Shown one piece after another: positions 13,057 through 58,893 of a stretch of DNA of 64,000 nt. Every line of letters begins with the position of its first letter. Position 1 is the stretch's first letter. Origin of the DNA: a bacterium BMS3Abin14 (GTDB lineage: Bacteria; BMS3Abin14); assembly GCA_002897695.1 (NCBI GenBank), contig BDTG01000041.1, forward strand, positions 20,101 through 84,100, given 5' to 3'. A model generated the notes under the pieces. The model had not been told where the DNA came from, did not search any database, and saw nothing but the letters and a program-made list of their open reading frames with translations. A program made the translations under genes and the position numbers.

Positions 13057-13149
13057 GGGGACGTAGTTAAGTTGTTAAGTTATATATCATTTTTGTCGTT
13101 TAATGCCAGGTGACCACCCAGTAACTTAACAACTTAACTACGTCCCCTA
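13057..13149. repeat. 26-28 bp perfect inverted repeat (hairpin with a 39-nt loop) between yggT and divIVA
   Basis: 13058-13083 ggggacgtagttaagttgttaagtta is the exact reverse complement of 13123-13148. The arms contain a tandem gttaagtt. Confidence 0.85.
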
Positions 13150-15291: not shown

Positions 15292-15360
15292 GGTGTACTT
15301 ATATCAGCAGATGGACAATAAATCACCGATCTTGGCAGGGTCGTAAAAAATCGTTAATAG

Positions 15361-15711: not shown

Positions 15712-15788
<77 letters not shown>

Positions 15789-15836: not shown

Positions 15837-15912
15837 TGGTGGGCGGTACAAGGCTCGAACTTGTGACCCCCGGCTTGTAAGGCCGATGCTCTCCCAACTG
15901 AGCTAACCGCCC
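15837..15912 (-). tRNA. tRNA-Val(UAC), CCA encoded
   Basis: Acceptor GGGCGGU/ACCGCCC, D-arm GCUCAGUUGGGAGAGC, anticodon loop CUUACAA, T-loop UUCGAGC, discriminator A. Confidence 0.9.
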
Positions 15913-21788: not shown

Positions 21789-21873
21789 TGGTGCGAGAAG
21801 GGGGACTCGAACCCCCACACCGTAAGGTACTGGGTCCTAAACCCAGCGCGTCTGCCGGTTCCGCCATTCTCGC
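21789..21873 (-). tRNA. tRNA-Leu(UAG), type II with long variable arm, CCA encoded
   Basis: Acceptor GCGAGAA/UUCUCGC, anticodon stem-loop CUGGG-UUUAGGA-CCCAG, long extra arm and T-loop UUCGAGU. Confidence 0.85.
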
Positions 21874-22779: not shown

Positions 22780-23635
22780 ATTTATGACAGCTAACGGTGT
22801 GCCCTGGTGCAACCTCGACCTCCGGGGCCTTTTCATGGAGACATTCGTCCATGGCATCCGGACAGCGTTCACAATAGTTGCAGCCGTCCGGCAGGGAGAA
22901 AAGCGAACAGACCGTACCGCCGATGGTGGTAAGCCTCCTGCTTTTCCGAGAATTCAGTACGGGCATGGAGTTTAACAGCCCGACGGTATATGGATGTCGC
23001 GGATCATGAAAAAGATCCTCCACCCTGGCCATCTCCACCACCCTGCCGCAGTACAGCACCACGACCCTCTGTGCCATCTCGGCAATAACCCCCAGGTCGT
23101 GGGTAATAAACAGGATTGAAGCGTTGGTTTCCTCCTTGAGCCTGTTCATCAGGTCAAGGATCTGAGCCTGGATGGTCACATCAAGAGCTGTGGTCGGCTC
23201 GTCGGCTATCATCAACCTCAGATTGCAGGCGAGGGCCATGGCAATCATCACCCGCTGCCGCATTCCACCACTCATCTGGTGGGGGTGGTCGTCGATGCGA
23301 TCTTCGGGAGCCGGTATACCCACGAGACGAAACGCCTCTATAACCTTCTCCCTTGTCTGCTTCCGCGAAAGTCTATGGTGGTGCTGTATGACCTCGGCGA
23401 CCTGATTACCCACGGTGTATACCGGGTTCAACGATGTCATCGGCTCCTGAAAGATTATGGAAATCCGGTTTCCGCGGATTTTTCTCATGCGCGATTCAGG
23501 CGCCTTTAACAGGTCCTCTCCCTCAAAGAGGATCTCACCGCCGGCGATCCTTCCGGGAGGGGATGGGATCAGCCCCATAATGGCGGCGGCCGTCACCCAA
23601 CAGGTTGAAGCCCAGAACCCCCAGGAATATGGCAA
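22772..23635 (-). pseudogene. oppD: oppD/dppD remnant lacking the N-terminal ~55 codons, including the Walker A
   Basis: Homology begins at [25 protein letters not shown], which is OppD residue ~50 onward. It retains LSGGMRQR, Walker B and a C-terminal Cys-rich tail, but no GxxGxGKS is upstream in any frame. Confidence 0.6.
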
Positions 23636-24021
23636 TGCCGGGTAAAGCCATTACCCACCAGGCCCGGAGGATCAGGGAACGCCCCGAACAGAACAGCGAT
23701 CCCTACACTGACGACTCCGACCATGAGGGAAACCCTGGCCCCGAATATAATTCTGGACAGGATGTCCCTGCCCAGGTCATCCGTCCCCAGCAGGTTTTCG
23801 GAACTCCCTCCCTGTTGCCATATCGGAGGCTTCAGCTGATCGTAAAGGGAATTTTCAATGGGATCGTGGGGACTGAGAACCGGGGCAAACAGGGCGGCAA
23901 GGACAAACAGGGTGATCAACACCAGACCGAGCACACCGGTCCTGTTCTTCAGCAGCTTTTCAAGCTGGTCGAAAAACGGGTGTCTGTTTTCCGGATCCGT
24001 AAATCTCGTGATCAAGCCCAT
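23560..24021 (-). pseudogene. oppC: oppC/dppC remnant: the N-terminal ~115 aa are joined by a frameshift to the last ~30 aa
   Basis: Frame A reads ...GTDDLGRDILSRIIFGARVSLMVGVVSVGIAVLFGAF and then stops. Frame B reads ...[25 protein letters not shown], the OppC C-terminus. About 140 codons of the permease core are absent. Confidence 0.6.
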
Positions 24022-24053: not shown

Positions 24054-24219
24054 CTGTTGATGGACTCGCAAAAAGTCCATTCGTGGCTTTTTGCTCAACG
24101 GAAAGCGGAAAATGTCATTTTCACTTTCCTTACAAATCAACGACTTGCGCTGCAAGTCATCGATTTGGGCGCCCTTAAACGGGCGCGTTGATGACTTTTT
24201 GCGAAGTCATCAACTGTTG
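24054..24219. repeat. Intergenic repeat element copy E1, about 165 bp, with imperfect terminal inverted repeats
   Basis: ctgttgatggactcgcaaaaagtcca ... gactttttgcgaagtcatcaactgttg. The core tggctttttgctcaacggaaagcg-aaaa-tgtc-ttttcactttc...acaaatcaac-acttgcg is about 85% identical to the copy at 58700-58887. Confidence 0.75.
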
Positions 24220-24560
24220 CTGATTCGCGGGTTGATGACAGCGTACAGAATGTCAACGATGAGATTGACCATCACGAAGGTGGCGGCCACGATCATGGTG
24301 CCCCCCTGGATAACCATGTAGTCCCTCTTGACGACCCCCTCGAACAGCCACTTCCCTACCCCCCCGCCAGGCGAAGACGGTCTCGGTCAGTATCGCCCCA
24401 CCCAAAAGGATGCCGAATTGAAGACCGATTACTGTTATCACCGGGATGAGACCGTTACGGAGGGCGTGTTTGAACACGACCCTGGTTCGGCTCAATCCCT
24501 TGGCCTTGGCCGTTCTGATATAGTCCTGGCGCAGGACCTCCAGCATGGAGGATCGAGTCA
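24210..24560 (-). pseudogene. oppB: oppB/dppB C-terminal fragment (last ~115 aa), with a frameshift in a C7/G7 run
   Basis: [65 protein letters not shown], then after a shift at 24359-24365 [48 protein letters not shown]. The N-terminal two-thirds are replaced by IS sequence. Confidence 0.6.
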
Positions 24561-25780
24561 TCTGCCTGAAGCGGCGTTTGCCCTGGCCGAACTTGCCTTC
24601 AATTGGAATCCGGTCAAGTTCATCCTGGCGCTGTTGGAGTTTTCTGTCCAGCATGTCTTGCGTGTTCTCGGGGGTGTTCTCGGGGGTTTTCTTCGGAGGA
24701 CGCCCCAATGGTGGCCCGGACATCCTGATACTCCCCTGTTTCTTGCAGTATCTACGGTTGTCACGTGTTCGATAAATAGCATCGCAATGCACCGATTCCG
24801 GATAGCAGCCAAAGCGTTGTTTGTAAGTCTCGATCTGTTCAATCAGATCACCGGACTCGTTAAAAGGATTCCAGTCAAGACGATCCAGGAACACGAAACC
24901 ATTAACCAGACTGGCTGACAGTTTGGCACCGAATTCCGTCGGCGCGGACGCTTTGCCGCGAACAATCGGACGGACATGTGGTTGGCTGATGCTGACAATC
25001 CGACCGCTGATCCGATGGCAGCAATTCTCATACATCCACTGTTGTTGGCGATAAAGTTCGTGGATCACCAGCAAGCTCTTGTATTGACGACGGTCAAGCA
25101 GGGTGAGTGACGTCTGTTCGGCAAGTTGTGCAATGGTGTTGAGATTGCGCCTGAGAAAGCGCAACTGTTGCCCCAGAACCTTACGGATCTGCCGCGCTGA
25201 ATGCTTGCGGCTTTTGCTGTACTTCAAAAACAGACGACGAGCTTTTTGTCGATAGGTGCGCGGCTTCTGTTTGCCCGGCACGGACAAGGGCTTCGTTGAC
25301 CTGGTTGAGTTGCTCCAGGCTGAAGCGATGGCGAAAATACACGAACATTGGCGAGTCGAACGGTGCTTCATCGCGGAATTCGTGGAACCCGAGAAAGTAT
25401 TGCAGATACGGGTTCTCACGAATCTGCTCCACCGCTTCTTCATCACTAACACCAAGGCGCTCTTTGATGATCAGGGCACCGAGAGCAACACGGGCAGGCT
25501 TGGCCGGAGCACCTTGACCGCTTTGAGAAAACTGTTTTTCGTAGAACGCCTCGGCGGTATCCCAAGGGACCATACGCGCCAGGATAACCCAGCGGTTATC
25601 GCTTCTGAGCTTGCCACCGAAAGGAAGGTAGAAGTCTTCAAAAGCCAATTGATTATCGGGTGTTGTTCGATACATTTGTGACCGCCATGTGCAAGGGTTT
25701 TAAGGCTAACCAACTATTTTTCTTGCACATATTAGCATGCAAACGCGGGGTTTGTCTAGTGTTTTCAGTAGGTTACGTAT
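24560..25780 (-). mobile_element. IS5-family (IS1182-like) insertion sequence remnant. The transposase is split across two overlapping frames (25675-25181 and 25455-~24575) and its 3' end is deleted.
   Basis: OrfA is MYRTTPDNQLAFEDFYLPFGGKLRSDNRWVILARMVPWD (DUF772-type N-domain). OrfB has the DDE region ...[60 protein letters not shown]...[14 protein letters not shown]. It then runs in-frame straight into the oppB tail, so the right end and its IR are missing. The left boundary is approximate. Confidence 0.7.
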
Positions 25781-32241: not shown

Positions 32242-32393
32242 TTCATCACTCCTCGCCCGGCCATGCAATGTAAAAACTTCCCGGAGACGAAAAAATCCCG
32301 GACCTCTTTATCGAGATCCGGGATGCCGTTTTTCATCCGTCTTTGACAGCGGTCAGACCCTGGCCGCGAGGGTTCCGTTCGCTCTGTCCAACA

Positions 32394-32560
32394 GGCAGGT
32401 CTTCTGGCTTCCGGATTACCCTACTCGCCGCGCCTTCCCGCCCTTCGACAAGCGCAGGACTAACCCTGGACTTCCTTTGAGCAGTGACTAATTGCGGCTT
32501 TCGTCCCCGGTTACAGCGGCGGGTCCGCGACGGATTCTCACCGTCTTCCCTTGGCCTGTT
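32394..32560 (-). ncRNA. Cobalamin (AdoCbl) riboswitch in the btuB leader
   Basis: The minus strand reads AAGGGAAGACGGUGAGAAUCCGUCGCGGACCCGCCGCUGUAACCGGGGACGAAAGCC ... AGUCACUG ... GGGAAGGCGCGGCG ... AGCCAGAAGACCUGCC, which contains the conserved stems and the B12 box of RF00174. A hairpin plus U-run (ccggatctcgataaagaggtccgggatttttt) follows as the expression platform. Confidence 0.8.
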
Positions 32561-32704
32561 AAATCAACAGTAGGGCACGATCGTCGGGATGTCAAGAATG
32601 GCGAGGCCTCAACGCATGGATCTTTATCTAACAGGGATGAAGGGGATAGAGGGGATAAACCTGCCATAAAACCCTATTTTGCCTTGTTTGCAGTGAGGTA
32701 CGCA

Positions 32705-34655: not shown

Positions 34656-34972
34656 CCGAAACCTTCATTGTTTGATAGGGTCGTAAAAAGTCCAGTCATG
34701 ATTTTTTTTGCAAAGCCGTCAATTTTCTCCACGAGATGGTCTCATTGCCGCAAGTTTACTTCAACGCGGGGGCATATACCAGATACAACCGGCCTGCCGG
34801 GAAAAGAGTGTATTGCCTGAAATACAGGCAGCACACTCAGGTTCAATGCCATATTTTCGTCCAATGGAGTTACCGCAGAATGCCCCTTATTCCCTTTGCC
34901 GTTGTACCGAATAAATAGCCATCTATTTGGAAAATAAAGAAATTCAGATTGGCAAACCCCCTTTGGAAAAAA

Positions 34973-39455: not shown

Positions 39456-39545
39456 TGTCTCATCATCTTTGGCAGGGTCGTCAAAAGTTCTGTTAAGGAT
39501 ATAGTTTCAAAACGTGTGTGTCTTTTATTACCACACGGCGCCCAA

Positions 39546-42287: not shown

Positions 42288-42340
42288 ATGTCACCTCCCT
42301 GGTATTAGGACAGTGTTCCCCGCACTATTTTTGATAGAGC

Positions 42341-42406
42341 CGTTAAAAGTCCACCTGTCTGCATGCAAGCACAGGCAGGTTCGCGACTTTTTGCAAAGTC
42401 ATCACG
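42341..42406. repeat. Intergenic repeat/hairpin element E4 in the ftsA-ftsZ gap
   Basis: ttaaaagtccacctgtctgcatgcaagcacaggcaggttcgcgactttttgcaaagtcatcacg. The frame A-run-GTC [GC-rich palindrome] GAC-T-run is shared with the other copies. Confidence 0.7.
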
Positions 42407-55274: not shown

Positions 55275-55287
55275 TTTCCGGCAACCT

Positions 55288-55349
55288 CGTTAAAAGTCGT
55301 CTCTCGCCGCGCATCTCCTGCGTGGCGGACTTTTTGCACATTCATCACG
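55288..55349. repeat. Intergenic repeat/hairpin element E5 in the ftsI-murE gap
   Basis: cgttaaaagtcgtctctcgccgcgcatctcctgcgtggcggactttttgcacattcatcacg. A long imperfect hairpin bounded by an A-run and a T-run. The right arm overlaps the ftsI stop. Confidence 0.7.
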
Positions 55350-57315: not shown

Positions 57316-57335
57316 TGGATCATCCATTTCGCCAG

Positions 57336-57405
57336 GGTCGTAAAAAATCCACTCATGGCTTTTTCCCAACAAAAAGCGAAAAATGCCATTTTCATTTTCC
57401 TCTCA
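57336..57405. repeat. Intergenic repeat element E3 in the ftsL-ftsI gap
   Basis: ggtcgtaaaaaatccactcatggctttttcccaacaaaaagcgaaaaatgccattttcattttcctctcaaatc. It shares the conserved core with E1 and E2. Confidence 0.7.
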
Positions 57406-57730
57406 AATCTTCCGGAATCATCATTACCTGTCCCGGACCAGGGTCCTTCATCCCCATGCGCTCCCGTGCAATATGCTCGATCCGTTCGGGCCTGTTTAAC
57501 ATGGCCCTCTCGATCTCAAGTTCCCGGTTGAGGCCGGCTTTGCGGGCCTCAGCCTTTTCCAGATCCCTTACCTGATATCCCAGGTCGATAACGTCGACAC
57601 CGCGCCATGCTGTTACGAAAATACCGCCGCCGACCAGAACGGAGATCAGCAGAACAATTGTCAATTCCCTGAGCCCGGGCGCCGCGATATGCTGCTCACG
57701 CTTTGCTCTGACTCCGGCGACTGCATTCAC
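57392..57730 (-). CDS. ftsL: Cell division protein FtsL
   Basis: Small bitopic protein with a coiled coil, positioned between rsmH and ftsI. Confidence 0.75.
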   Translation of the reverse strand: MNAVAGVRAKREQHIAAPGLRELTIVLLISVLVGGGIFVTAWRGVDVIDLGYQVRDLEKAEARKAGLNRELEIERAMLNRPERIEHIARERMGMKDPGPGQVMMIPEDLRGK

Positions 57731-58677
57731 GGGATGATCCTCTCAAAAACACGCATCTTGGCGCTCCTGCTCCTGGGGTTGGCGCGGATCTCATCCTCAC
57801 CCGGCACGATGGGGCGCCTTGTCACGACCTTCCCTTCCGGCTTTTCTCCGCATACGCACAGGGGAAAATACGGGGGGCATCGGCAGGGGTTTTCCATATC
57901 CCTGAATTCCCTTTTTACAATTCTGTCCTCCAGCGAATGGAAAGAGATGACAACCATACGTCCACCTGAGACCAGATACTCAACGGAATCGGGAATGGCG
58001 CTTGCCAGAGATCCCAATTCATCGTTAACCTCAATACGCAAAGCCTGAAAGGATCGTGTCGCGGGATGAATCCGGAAACGATCCCTTCCTCCCATGGCGG
58101 CCGCGATGATTCCAGCCAACTCCGTGGTGCTGCGGATCCGTCCCCTTTGACGGCTTCTGACTATGGCCCTGGTTATTGCGGCTGACTGCCTTTCCTCCCC
58201 ATAGCGAAACAGGATTTTTTTCAGGTCCGGTGGGGAATATTCATTGACCACTTCCTCGGCCGTGAGGGGGCCGGACGGGTCCATGCGCATATCCAGAGGA
58301 CCGTCGTACTGGAAGGAAAAACCCCTTCTTCCAGTCTCGAGCTGTCTGCTCGAAACCCCAAGATCCATGATAATCCCGTCCACCATATCTACCCCAGCTT
58401 TTTTCAGCTCGACCCCTGCATTTTTGAAATCGGCCTGGTAAAGATGCACCCTCCCTTCAAATTCCCGGAGCCTTTCCCCGGCCAACTTCAGGATTTCAGG
58501 ATCTCTGTCCAGGCCGACAACCTGTGTGCCCGCGCATCGAGTCAGGATGGCTGCGGAGTGCCCTCCTTCTCCGACCGTCCCGTCCAGATACACCCCTCCC
58601 TCCCGGATTCGAAGCTCCCTGAGGAGTTCATCCAGCAGGACCGGTATGTGCCCTTGCCCGGCCTCGTAACCTGCCAT
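57727..58677 (-). CDS. rsmH: 16S rRNA (cytosine1402-N4)-methyltransferase RsmH/MraW. Start ATG 58677.
   Basis: HIPVLL and the SAM-binding GGHS motif (DGTVGEGGHS). Confidence 0.9.
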   Translation of the reverse strand: MAGYEAGQGHIPVLLDELLRELRIREGGVYLDGTVGEGGHSAAILTRCAGTQVVGLDRDPEILKLAGERLREFEGRVHLYQADFKNAGVELKKAGVDMVDGIIMDLGVSSRQLETGRRGFSFQYDGPLDMRMDPSGPLTAEEVVNEYSPPDLKKILFRYGEERQSAAITRAIVRSRQRGRIRSTTELAGIIAAAMGGRDRFRIHPATRSFQALRIEVNDELGSLASAIPDSVEYLVSGGRMVVISFHSLEDRIVKREFRDMENPCRCPPYFPLCVCGEKPEGKVVTRRPIVPGEDEIRANPRSRSAKMRVFERIIP

Positions 58678-58699
58678 TATTCCCTGTTGGCATCCATTG

Positions 58700-58887
58700 A
58701 CATGGTCGCAAAAAGTCCACTTGTCTGCGTGCAACGCACAGGCAGGTTCATGGCTTTTTGCTCAACGGAAAGCGAAAAGTGTCCTTTTCACTTTCATCAC
58801 AAATCAACAACTTGCGTTCCAGGCCATTGATTCAGGCGCCCTCATGGATGATGGCTTTGTAAAAAGTCATCATCCATGAGGGTGCCT
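58700..58887. repeat. Intergenic repeat element E2, about 190 bp, in the mraZ-rsmH gap. It ends in a 13-bp perfect palindrome.
   Basis: ggtcgcaaaaagtccac...catggctttttgctcaacggaaagcgaaaagtgtccttttcactttcatcacaaatcaacaacttgcg...ctcatggatgatg-gctttgtaaaaagt-catcatccatgag. Confidence 0.75.
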
Positions 58888-58893
58888 GAGAGA

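Follow-up and report, generated by a model that had tools for sequence, protein, structure and literature searches.

The repeat E2, which occupies the gap between mraZ and rsmH in the dcw cluster of bacterium BMS3Abin14, is very probably a copy of a non-autonomous DNA transposon (MITE) of ∼156 bp. The family to which it belongs is characterized by inverted-repeat ends, flanking duplications, dispersal, a conserved structure, and presence/absence differences among related genomes. It is dense in the compact genomes of the candidate phylum BMS3Abin14 and of neighboring lineages. The DNA analyzed is a stretch of 64 kb, referred to here as the window, from a host identified as bacterium BMS3Abin14 (FtsZ, GBE15643.1; RsmH, GBE15657.1). 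This genome gives its name to the GTDB candidate phylum BMS3Abin14, also called 'Ca. Hudomiota', whose genomes range from 1.5 to 2.9 Mb (PMC11382960).

The repeat is real and far beyond chance because of the core identity between its copies, the count of end motifs, and the z-scores of the folds. A sequence-only reading of the window had reported a core common to three copies, E1, E2, and E3, at roughly 75-85% identity, and the repeat sequence is found where that reading placed it and in the form it described. An ungapped core of 96 nt is common to E1 and E2 at 85% identity, and E3 matches each of them at 82-83% over 58-73 nt. End to end, the identity of E1 and E2 drops to 68%, with E2 carrying an extra hairpin of 31 nt and a rearranged hairpin 2. 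The end motif GGTCGYAAAAAGTCCA, with up to three mismatches, occurs eight times in the window as compared with 0.97 expected, and none of 100 shuffles reaches eight. The single-strand folds of E1 and E2 have z-scores of -10.2 and -9.5 against shuffles and consist of five to six consecutive hairpins.

The consensus unit of ∼156 nt runs from 5'-TGATGACTTCGCAAAAAGTC to GGACTTTTTRCGACCCTATCA-3', an end pair also written as TGATGACTTCGCAAAAAGTC...GACCCTATCA; the full consensus is TGATGACTTCGCAAAAAGTCATCAA / CGCGCCCnnTGAGGGGCGCC / CAAATCAATGACTTGCAnTGCAAGTTATTGATTTG / TGAG / GAAAGTGAAAATGACACTTTTCGCTTTC / CGTTGAG / TAAAAAGCCAcgaaTGGACTTTTTACGACCCTATCA(A). Units are 154-157 nt long, or 173-176 nt with inserts, and are noncoding, with stop codons in every frame and no ORF. 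The terminal inverted repeats of ∼20 nt are imperfect, have TG..CA tips, and are conserved across copies; when the right end is reverse-complemented (TGATAGGGTCGCAAAAAGTC), 16-17 of its 20 positions agree with the left end TGATGACTTCGCAAAAAGTC. The natural reading direction of the element in the window is the minus strand, which is also that of the dcw genes.

Duplications of the target site were assessed in 20 independent full copies and compared with 80 shifted controls. Exact 4-bp repeats flank five of the 20 copies, whereas the controls have a mean of 0.16 and a maximum of two (binomial probability ∼1e-8). When a match at three or more of the four positions is accepted, the count rises to eight of 20, against 1.16 in the shifted controls. 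The exact duplications are ACGA, ATGT, TATT, and TAGA, the last of which occurs twice, both times in one tandem pair; three more copies match at 3/4 positions. Most copies are without an intact duplication, including E1 and the orthologue of E2 in a sister species (L044). The sequences of the left flanks vary, and there is no conserved target tetranucleotide at the left border. The combination of TG..CA tips and a 4-bp duplication might point to IS3-family elements.

The copies in the window were compiled from an nhmmer profile, a covariance model, and a motif search. Nine copies or fragments were found: two full copies, one 5'-truncated copy, two mini-copies, and four solo ends, all but one on the minus strand. 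E2 is a full copy at 58698-58872 (minus strand; nhmmer positions 1-155, score 110; covariance model, 101 bits). Its extra hairpin, GAACCTGCCTGTGCGTTGCACGCAGACAAG, lies in the loop of hairpin 5 at 58719-58749 (minus strand) and recurs as the core of E4. The palindrome that the sequence-only reading had noticed after the mraZ stop is also real and extends further: arms of 27 nt, 93% complementary, span 58832-58889, beginning 5 nt past the stop, and comprise hairpin 1 of E2, which is nested inside, the right arm of hairpin 2, and the left flank. The canonical full copy is E1, located at 24057-24212 (minus strand) between an OppB-like remnant and an OppC-like ORF, with an nhmmer score of 168 and 177 bits in the covariance model. 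The first TGA of E1 is the stop codon of the OppB-like remnant. The surrounding region, termed an opp locus in the sequence-only reading, is itself a remnant. It spans 24213-25675 (minus strand) and 23593-24021 and contains a truncated transposase of the IS5/IS1182-like type (DUF772 and DDE_Tnp_1_2) that is fused to the C-terminal portion of an OppB-like permease. The OppC-like ORF has only 142 aa, and the same arrangement is present in all strains sampled.

The remaining copies in the window are shortened. E3, between ftsL and ftsI at 57330-57409 (minus strand), is 5'-truncated and retains hairpin 4, hairpin 5, and the right end (nhmmer positions 75-151, score 57; covariance model, 45 bits). 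E3 was said to be bounded by imperfect inverted repeats like every other copy, but it has no far arm and therefore is not so bounded. A start in GGTCG had likewise been ascribed to all copies, but E1 starts with GGACTCGCAAAAAGTCCA. Two further copies that had been proposed in the dcw cluster, E4 and E5, are genuine and turn out to be mini-copies, built of a left end, a GC-rich hairpin, and an arm resembling the right end. E4 covers 73 nt between ftsA and ftsZ at 42332-42404 (minus strand) and reaches only 12.4 bits in the covariance model (E = 0.13). E5, also recorded as repeat D7, lies between ftsI and murE at ∼55283-55347 (minus strand), with the left end TGATGAATGTGCAAAAAGTC, a GC hairpin, and an GACTTTTAACG arm. 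A perfect solo right end, GGACTTTTTACGACCCTATCA, is present upstream of an MFS transporter gene at 34673-34711 (minus strand). Three solo ends are weak matches: a degenerate right end between a radical-SAM gene and maf at 39470-39490 (minus strand, four mismatches), another in a divergent intergenic region at 15333-15353 (minus strand, four mismatches), and an end-like fragment at 1015-1035 (three to four mismatches), the only one on the plus strand. Right-end fragments outnumber left-end fragments by ∼3:1.

The genes of the dcw cluster are encoded on the minus strand, with mraZ at 59346-58894, rsmH at 58677-57727, ftsL, which is followed by ftsI, at 57730-57392, and ftsZ at 42287-41136. While rsmH and ftsL overlap by 4 nt, the spacer between mraZ and rsmH measures 216 nt and, read on the minus strand, holds E2. 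The MITE copies account for the unusually large gaps in this otherwise compact cluster. All copies of the family are intergenic or clip only the final codons of a gene, often at the stop codon. The proposal that the copies overlap the last codons of the upstream gene stands for E1, E3, and E5, as E3 supplies the final ∼6 codons and the stop of ftsL and the first TGA of E5 is the ftsI stop codon; it does not stand for E2 and E4, which begin just past the stop. ORF-finder calls for rsmH (335 aa) and ftsI (675 aa, TTG start) run upstream into the element. The true start of rsmH is most likely ATGGCAGG at 58677, and that of ftsI is most likely ATGGATGAT at ∼57327 or ATGAGAAAA a few codons further on. 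Gene calls that run into the element at final codons or starts are thereby flagged, and annotation near these repeats needs care.

An element distinct from the family, a perfect 26-bp inverted repeat (GGGGACGTAGTTAAGTTGTTAAGTTA) with an AT-rich spacer of 39 nt, lies in a divergent intergenic region at 13057-13147. It may form a hairpin or be a short segment capable of inversion. A cobalamin riboswitch (95.9 bits) is located at 32377-32574 on the minus strand, and tRNA genes are present at 15715-15788, 15840-15912, and 21792-21873. A reading of TGGACTTTTTGCGA as a sigma-54 promoter was rejected, as the GG-to-GC spacing is 9 and not 12. An integron attC-like site was likewise rejected for the family, whose end motifs depart from RYYYAAC/GTTRRRY and which is not accompanied by cassettes.

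Beyond the window, scans detected more than 25 further copies, which occupy unrelated loci in other MAGs and in metagenome contigs and reach densities of up to three to four per 12 kb. A pattern scan of GTDB species genomes detected copies with unrelated flanks in the MAG 'Proteobacteria bacterium SZUA-178', and copies with unrelated flanks are also present in 17 metagenome contigs. The scan of metagenome contigs returned 19 loci, of which 18 are genuine and one (L019) is a chance match. A profile built from the genuine loci then revealed several copies per contig, including three to four in 12.9 kb (L018), three in 11.4 kb (L026), three in 6 kb (L034), and three in 3.8 kb (L021). Both orientations are seen on one contig, and tandem pairs occur in L020, L021, L028, and L012. 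A diverged, GC-richer copy lies between gltB-like and gltD-like genes at 5568-5727 of L014 (identical to L033), in a MAG labeled Zetaproteobacteria, which means either that the family extends across phylum boundaries or that this contig was binned wrongly. Assemblies of the window's own species break inside the element, within E2 in L007 and L010 and within E1 in L052, as is expected because the repeat is multi-copy. No similar sequence was detected by blastn among PLSDB plasmids or by pattern scans of IMG/VR viral contigs. Literature searches for the characteristic element sequence, for SZUA-178, and for MITEs in Desulfobacter-type bacteria returned no match, and the family appears to be unnamed so far.

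The history of the dcw copies can be followed among strains and related species. Ten metagenome contigs with identical MraZ are 97.6-99.99% identical to the window. Two of the ten, L004 and L009, are without a block of 206 nt (58683-58888, minus strand) that comprises E2 and most of the spacer, and only a 10-nt spacer, TGATCGCTGAATAATG, is left between mraZ and rsmH. In the sister species L044, with an RsmH 83% identical to that of the window, a canonical full copy occupies the orthologous mraZ-rsmH site, and its flanks are homologous on both sides (TCTCTTAAGCA... on the left, ...GTGCCAACGGGAAATGATGG on the right); the insertion of E2 therefore predates the species split. This orthologous copy rules out the allele of L004 and L009 as a pre-insertion empty site. 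The short allele is, as the sequences indicate, a later 206-nt deletion or recombinational replacement. E2 was thus lost in these two strains, which shows dispensability and not recent movement; since the deletion exceeds the element, the polymorphism is no evidence of transposition. Evidence of activity after the species split comes from a second copy in L044 (2900-2984), which is internally deleted, fused to the 3' end of rsmH, where it takes the place of the final codons and provides the stop, and missing in the window. In the relative GCA_041545885.1, at ∼60% RsmH identity, the mraZ-rsmH gap is 33 nt, the other junctions overlap or are separated by 1 nt, and no element is present. E1, E3, and E4 show no such polymorphism and are present in every strain sampled (six strains for E4).

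These properties agree with the definition of prokaryotic MITEs, which includes fading direct repeats, truncated copies, and transcripts that form stable hairpins, and which also takes in the 5'-truncated and REP-like products of decay known for QMITE2 and Chunjie (PMC10969869). The unit falls below the MITE length limit of 500 bp and is without coding sequence, and its ends fall within the range of ∼4-30 bp for terminal inverted repeats. Flanking direct repeats, which are looked for at least in younger copies, are exact in the five of 20 described above, and the copies are dispersed at unrelated loci. Insertion differences among related genomes are present, as seen in the extra copy of L044, the absence of any copy in the relative at 60% identity, and the loss of E2 in L004 and L009. 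The sequence-only reading had offered a MITE-like dispersed family as one of its interpretations, and it is this one that is borne out by the inverted-repeat ends, the 4-bp duplications, the unrelated loci, the truncated and tandem copies, and the differences in copies between sister species.

For a non-autonomous transposon, a transposase encoded elsewhere would bind both ends and insert the element by a 4-bp staggered cut, which would generate the 4-bp target-site duplications. The mobilizing transposase is probably of the DDE type. Copies persist only in intergenic slots and then decay to 5'-truncated, mini-, and solo-end forms. No autonomous element with matching ends was found in the window or in ∼300 kb of fetched loci, and no transposase was found at candidate longer elements beside solo ends in L017, L021, and L023. 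The neighboring IS5/IS1182-like gene, the only transposase in the window, was considered as the parent and rejected, because it has unrelated ends and has itself been reduced to a truncated remnant. The dcw relics E2, E3, E5, and E4 are sense-oriented, so that they would be carried in the polycistronic dcw mRNA as arrays of very stable hairpins. Any influence they have on expression is presumably small or neutral, and the natural loss of E2 suggests that at least that copy is not required.

The folding of the element raises the question of whether it serves the host as a structured RNA, in which the hairpins act as signals for mRNA processing, stability, or attenuation ('operon punctuation') or in which the copies form a dispersed small-RNA family, with mobility being secondary. 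Besides the strong folds of E1 and E2, RNAalifold predicts five helices with 48 pairs in which 96% of cells are paired, whereas slid controls pair at only 39-49%. Changes on both sides occur in 12 pairs as compared with 4.9 in shuffles (one of 500 reaches 12), and all five helices covary. G.T pairs are far better tolerated on the sense strand, where they fill 62 cells in 21 columns, than A.C pairs, which are confined to 12 cells, each a singleton, and the strand reading TGATGAC...TATCA folds better than its complement. Eight of the nine window copies run in the direction of the downstream gene, and the fixation of E1, E3, and E4 would also suit a host function. Part of the covariation, however, tracks two subfamilies (C/C/G and T/T/A) that differ jointly at the left end, in the 5' arm of hairpin 5, and at the right end; the independent events are therefore fewer than the cell counts suggest. 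On other contigs, some copies are antisense to both neighbors: 12 copies have the same orientation as both, five are opposite to both, and the rest are mixed, a distribution that is not significant and rests on crude ORF calls. Consensus scans for a sigma-70 promoter or an intrinsic terminator found none common to E1 and E2. In Rfam searches of the whole window at the gathering threshold, the element sites had no match, and relaxing the cutoff to E up to 10 for E1 and E2 yielded nothing beyond sub-threshold hairpin noise. An RNA gene would not be expected to have inverted-repeat ends or flanking duplications, and two strains have naturally deleted E2, with the 10-nt spacer left in its place. 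A host-serving RNA is thus an unlikely account of the family, and to regard the element as a purpose-built operon signal would be speculation, as nothing shows that it is one. Nevertheless, the covariation and the excess of G.T pairs are not required by a purely double-stranded cut-and-paste element. It is conceivable, if rather doubtful, that the hairpin array is kept by selection on the single strand, either as sense RNA co-opted as a processing or stability insulator between cistrons or as a folded single-stranded intermediate in movement or replication. Such selection, if true, would account for the covariation seen in all five helices, for G.T pairs being five times as frequent as A.C pairs on one strand, and for the excess of copies reduced to their 3' half.

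Movement as single-stranded DNA is also central to a further explanation, in which the family would represent REP/BIME or REPIN sequences spread by a RAYT (Y1/HUH) transposase or a palindrome-associated element derived from IS200/IS605. The element is indeed hairpin-rich, intergenic, and mosaic or modular, many copies are without flanking duplications, and a strand-asymmetric tolerance of G.T pairs would suit a single-strand intermediate. The REP/BIME interpretation had been put forward from sequence inspection, but REP units are single palindromes of 20-40 nt or inverted pairs of them, free of inverted-repeat ends and duplications, and they do not fit a 156-nt unit with five different hairpins. 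Terminal inverted repeats and 4-bp duplications are not made by Y1/HUH elements; IS200/IS605 elements have neither, but have subterminal hairpins and a fixed tetra- or pentanucleotide target, whereas the left flanks here vary. This origin is accordingly given very little credence. The least probable explanation is that the copies are no more than conserved untranslated regions belonging to the dcw and opp operons, with a chance resemblance to each other. Although the identity of E1, E3, and E4 in all strains of the species would be compatible with it, this explanation is refuted by more than 25 copies at unrelated loci in other genomes, the eight end motifs in the window against ∼1 expected, and the empty junctions of the relative at 60% RsmH identity. 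The alternative that the core is confined to three places, with the same sequence in the corresponding gaps of relatives, is likewise contradicted by these copies and by the compact, empty dcw junctions of this distant relative. A non-autonomous transposon whose copies decay in intergenic slots is the explanation retained here.

The MITE described here gives a candidate phylum that is known from metagenomes alone a well-delimited repeat family, and its copies explain assembly breaks in BMS3Abin14 organisms. The family also offers a marker for typing strains. An essential cell-division operon here tolerates four relics of a single transposon, and strains with and without E2 constitute a natural experiment on the effect of a hairpin array on polycistronic expression. 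The element is a familiar kind of selfish DNA in a new family, and no general concept is changed by it.

Among known repeat families, the behavior of the element is closest to that of the Correia, Chunjie, and QMITE2 elements, with which it has no sequence in common. ERIC sequences of enterobacteria have insertion variants. Together with BOX, RUP, and SPRITE of Streptococcus pneumoniae, they resemble the present family as modular, hairpin-forming intergenic repeats that are transcribed with their neighbors and include variants with internal insertions (PMC3049150). None of the four shares sequence with this family, and BOX elements are without inverted-repeat ends or flanking duplications, both of which are clear here. 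REP, BIME, and REPIN sequences with RAYT are similarly abundant extragenic palindromes within operons, but they consist of one short palindrome or an inverted pair and have neither terminal inverted repeats nor target duplication.

The Correia elements of Neisseria (CREE/NEMIS) are MITEs of ∼100-155 bp with inverted-repeat ends of ∼20-26 bp that are abundant in a small genome, intergenic, and co-transcribed as hairpins, all of which is shared with the present family. Correia elements duplicate TA at their insertion site. The element studied here differs from the Correia consensus with its 26-bp ends and TA duplication, as both ends and duplications are different: the sequence is unrelated, the 4-bp duplication varies in sequence, five separate hairpins replace one long end-to-end stem, and no outward promoter was detected. 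According to the literature, CREE can affect their neighbors through promoters, IHF, and RNase III (PMC2649163). In QMITE2 of Coxiella burnetii, as in this family, full copies are a minority, many copies are without the 5' end, the transcript is predicted to be very stably folded, and decayed copies are REP-like (PMC10969869, PMC5896051). QMITE2 differs in its direct repeats of 7-9 bp, its inverted-repeat ends of 23-29 bp, and its unrelated sequence. The Chunjie element of Geobacter uraniireducens is a MITE inserted within an operon without breaking it, with dozens of full copies and many partial ones that are without inverted-repeat ends or direct repeats (PMC10969869, citing Chen et al. 2008). 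Chunjie is set apart by its sequence, size (178-235 bp), and host, whereas the family described here has left four relics in a single essential cluster, dcw.
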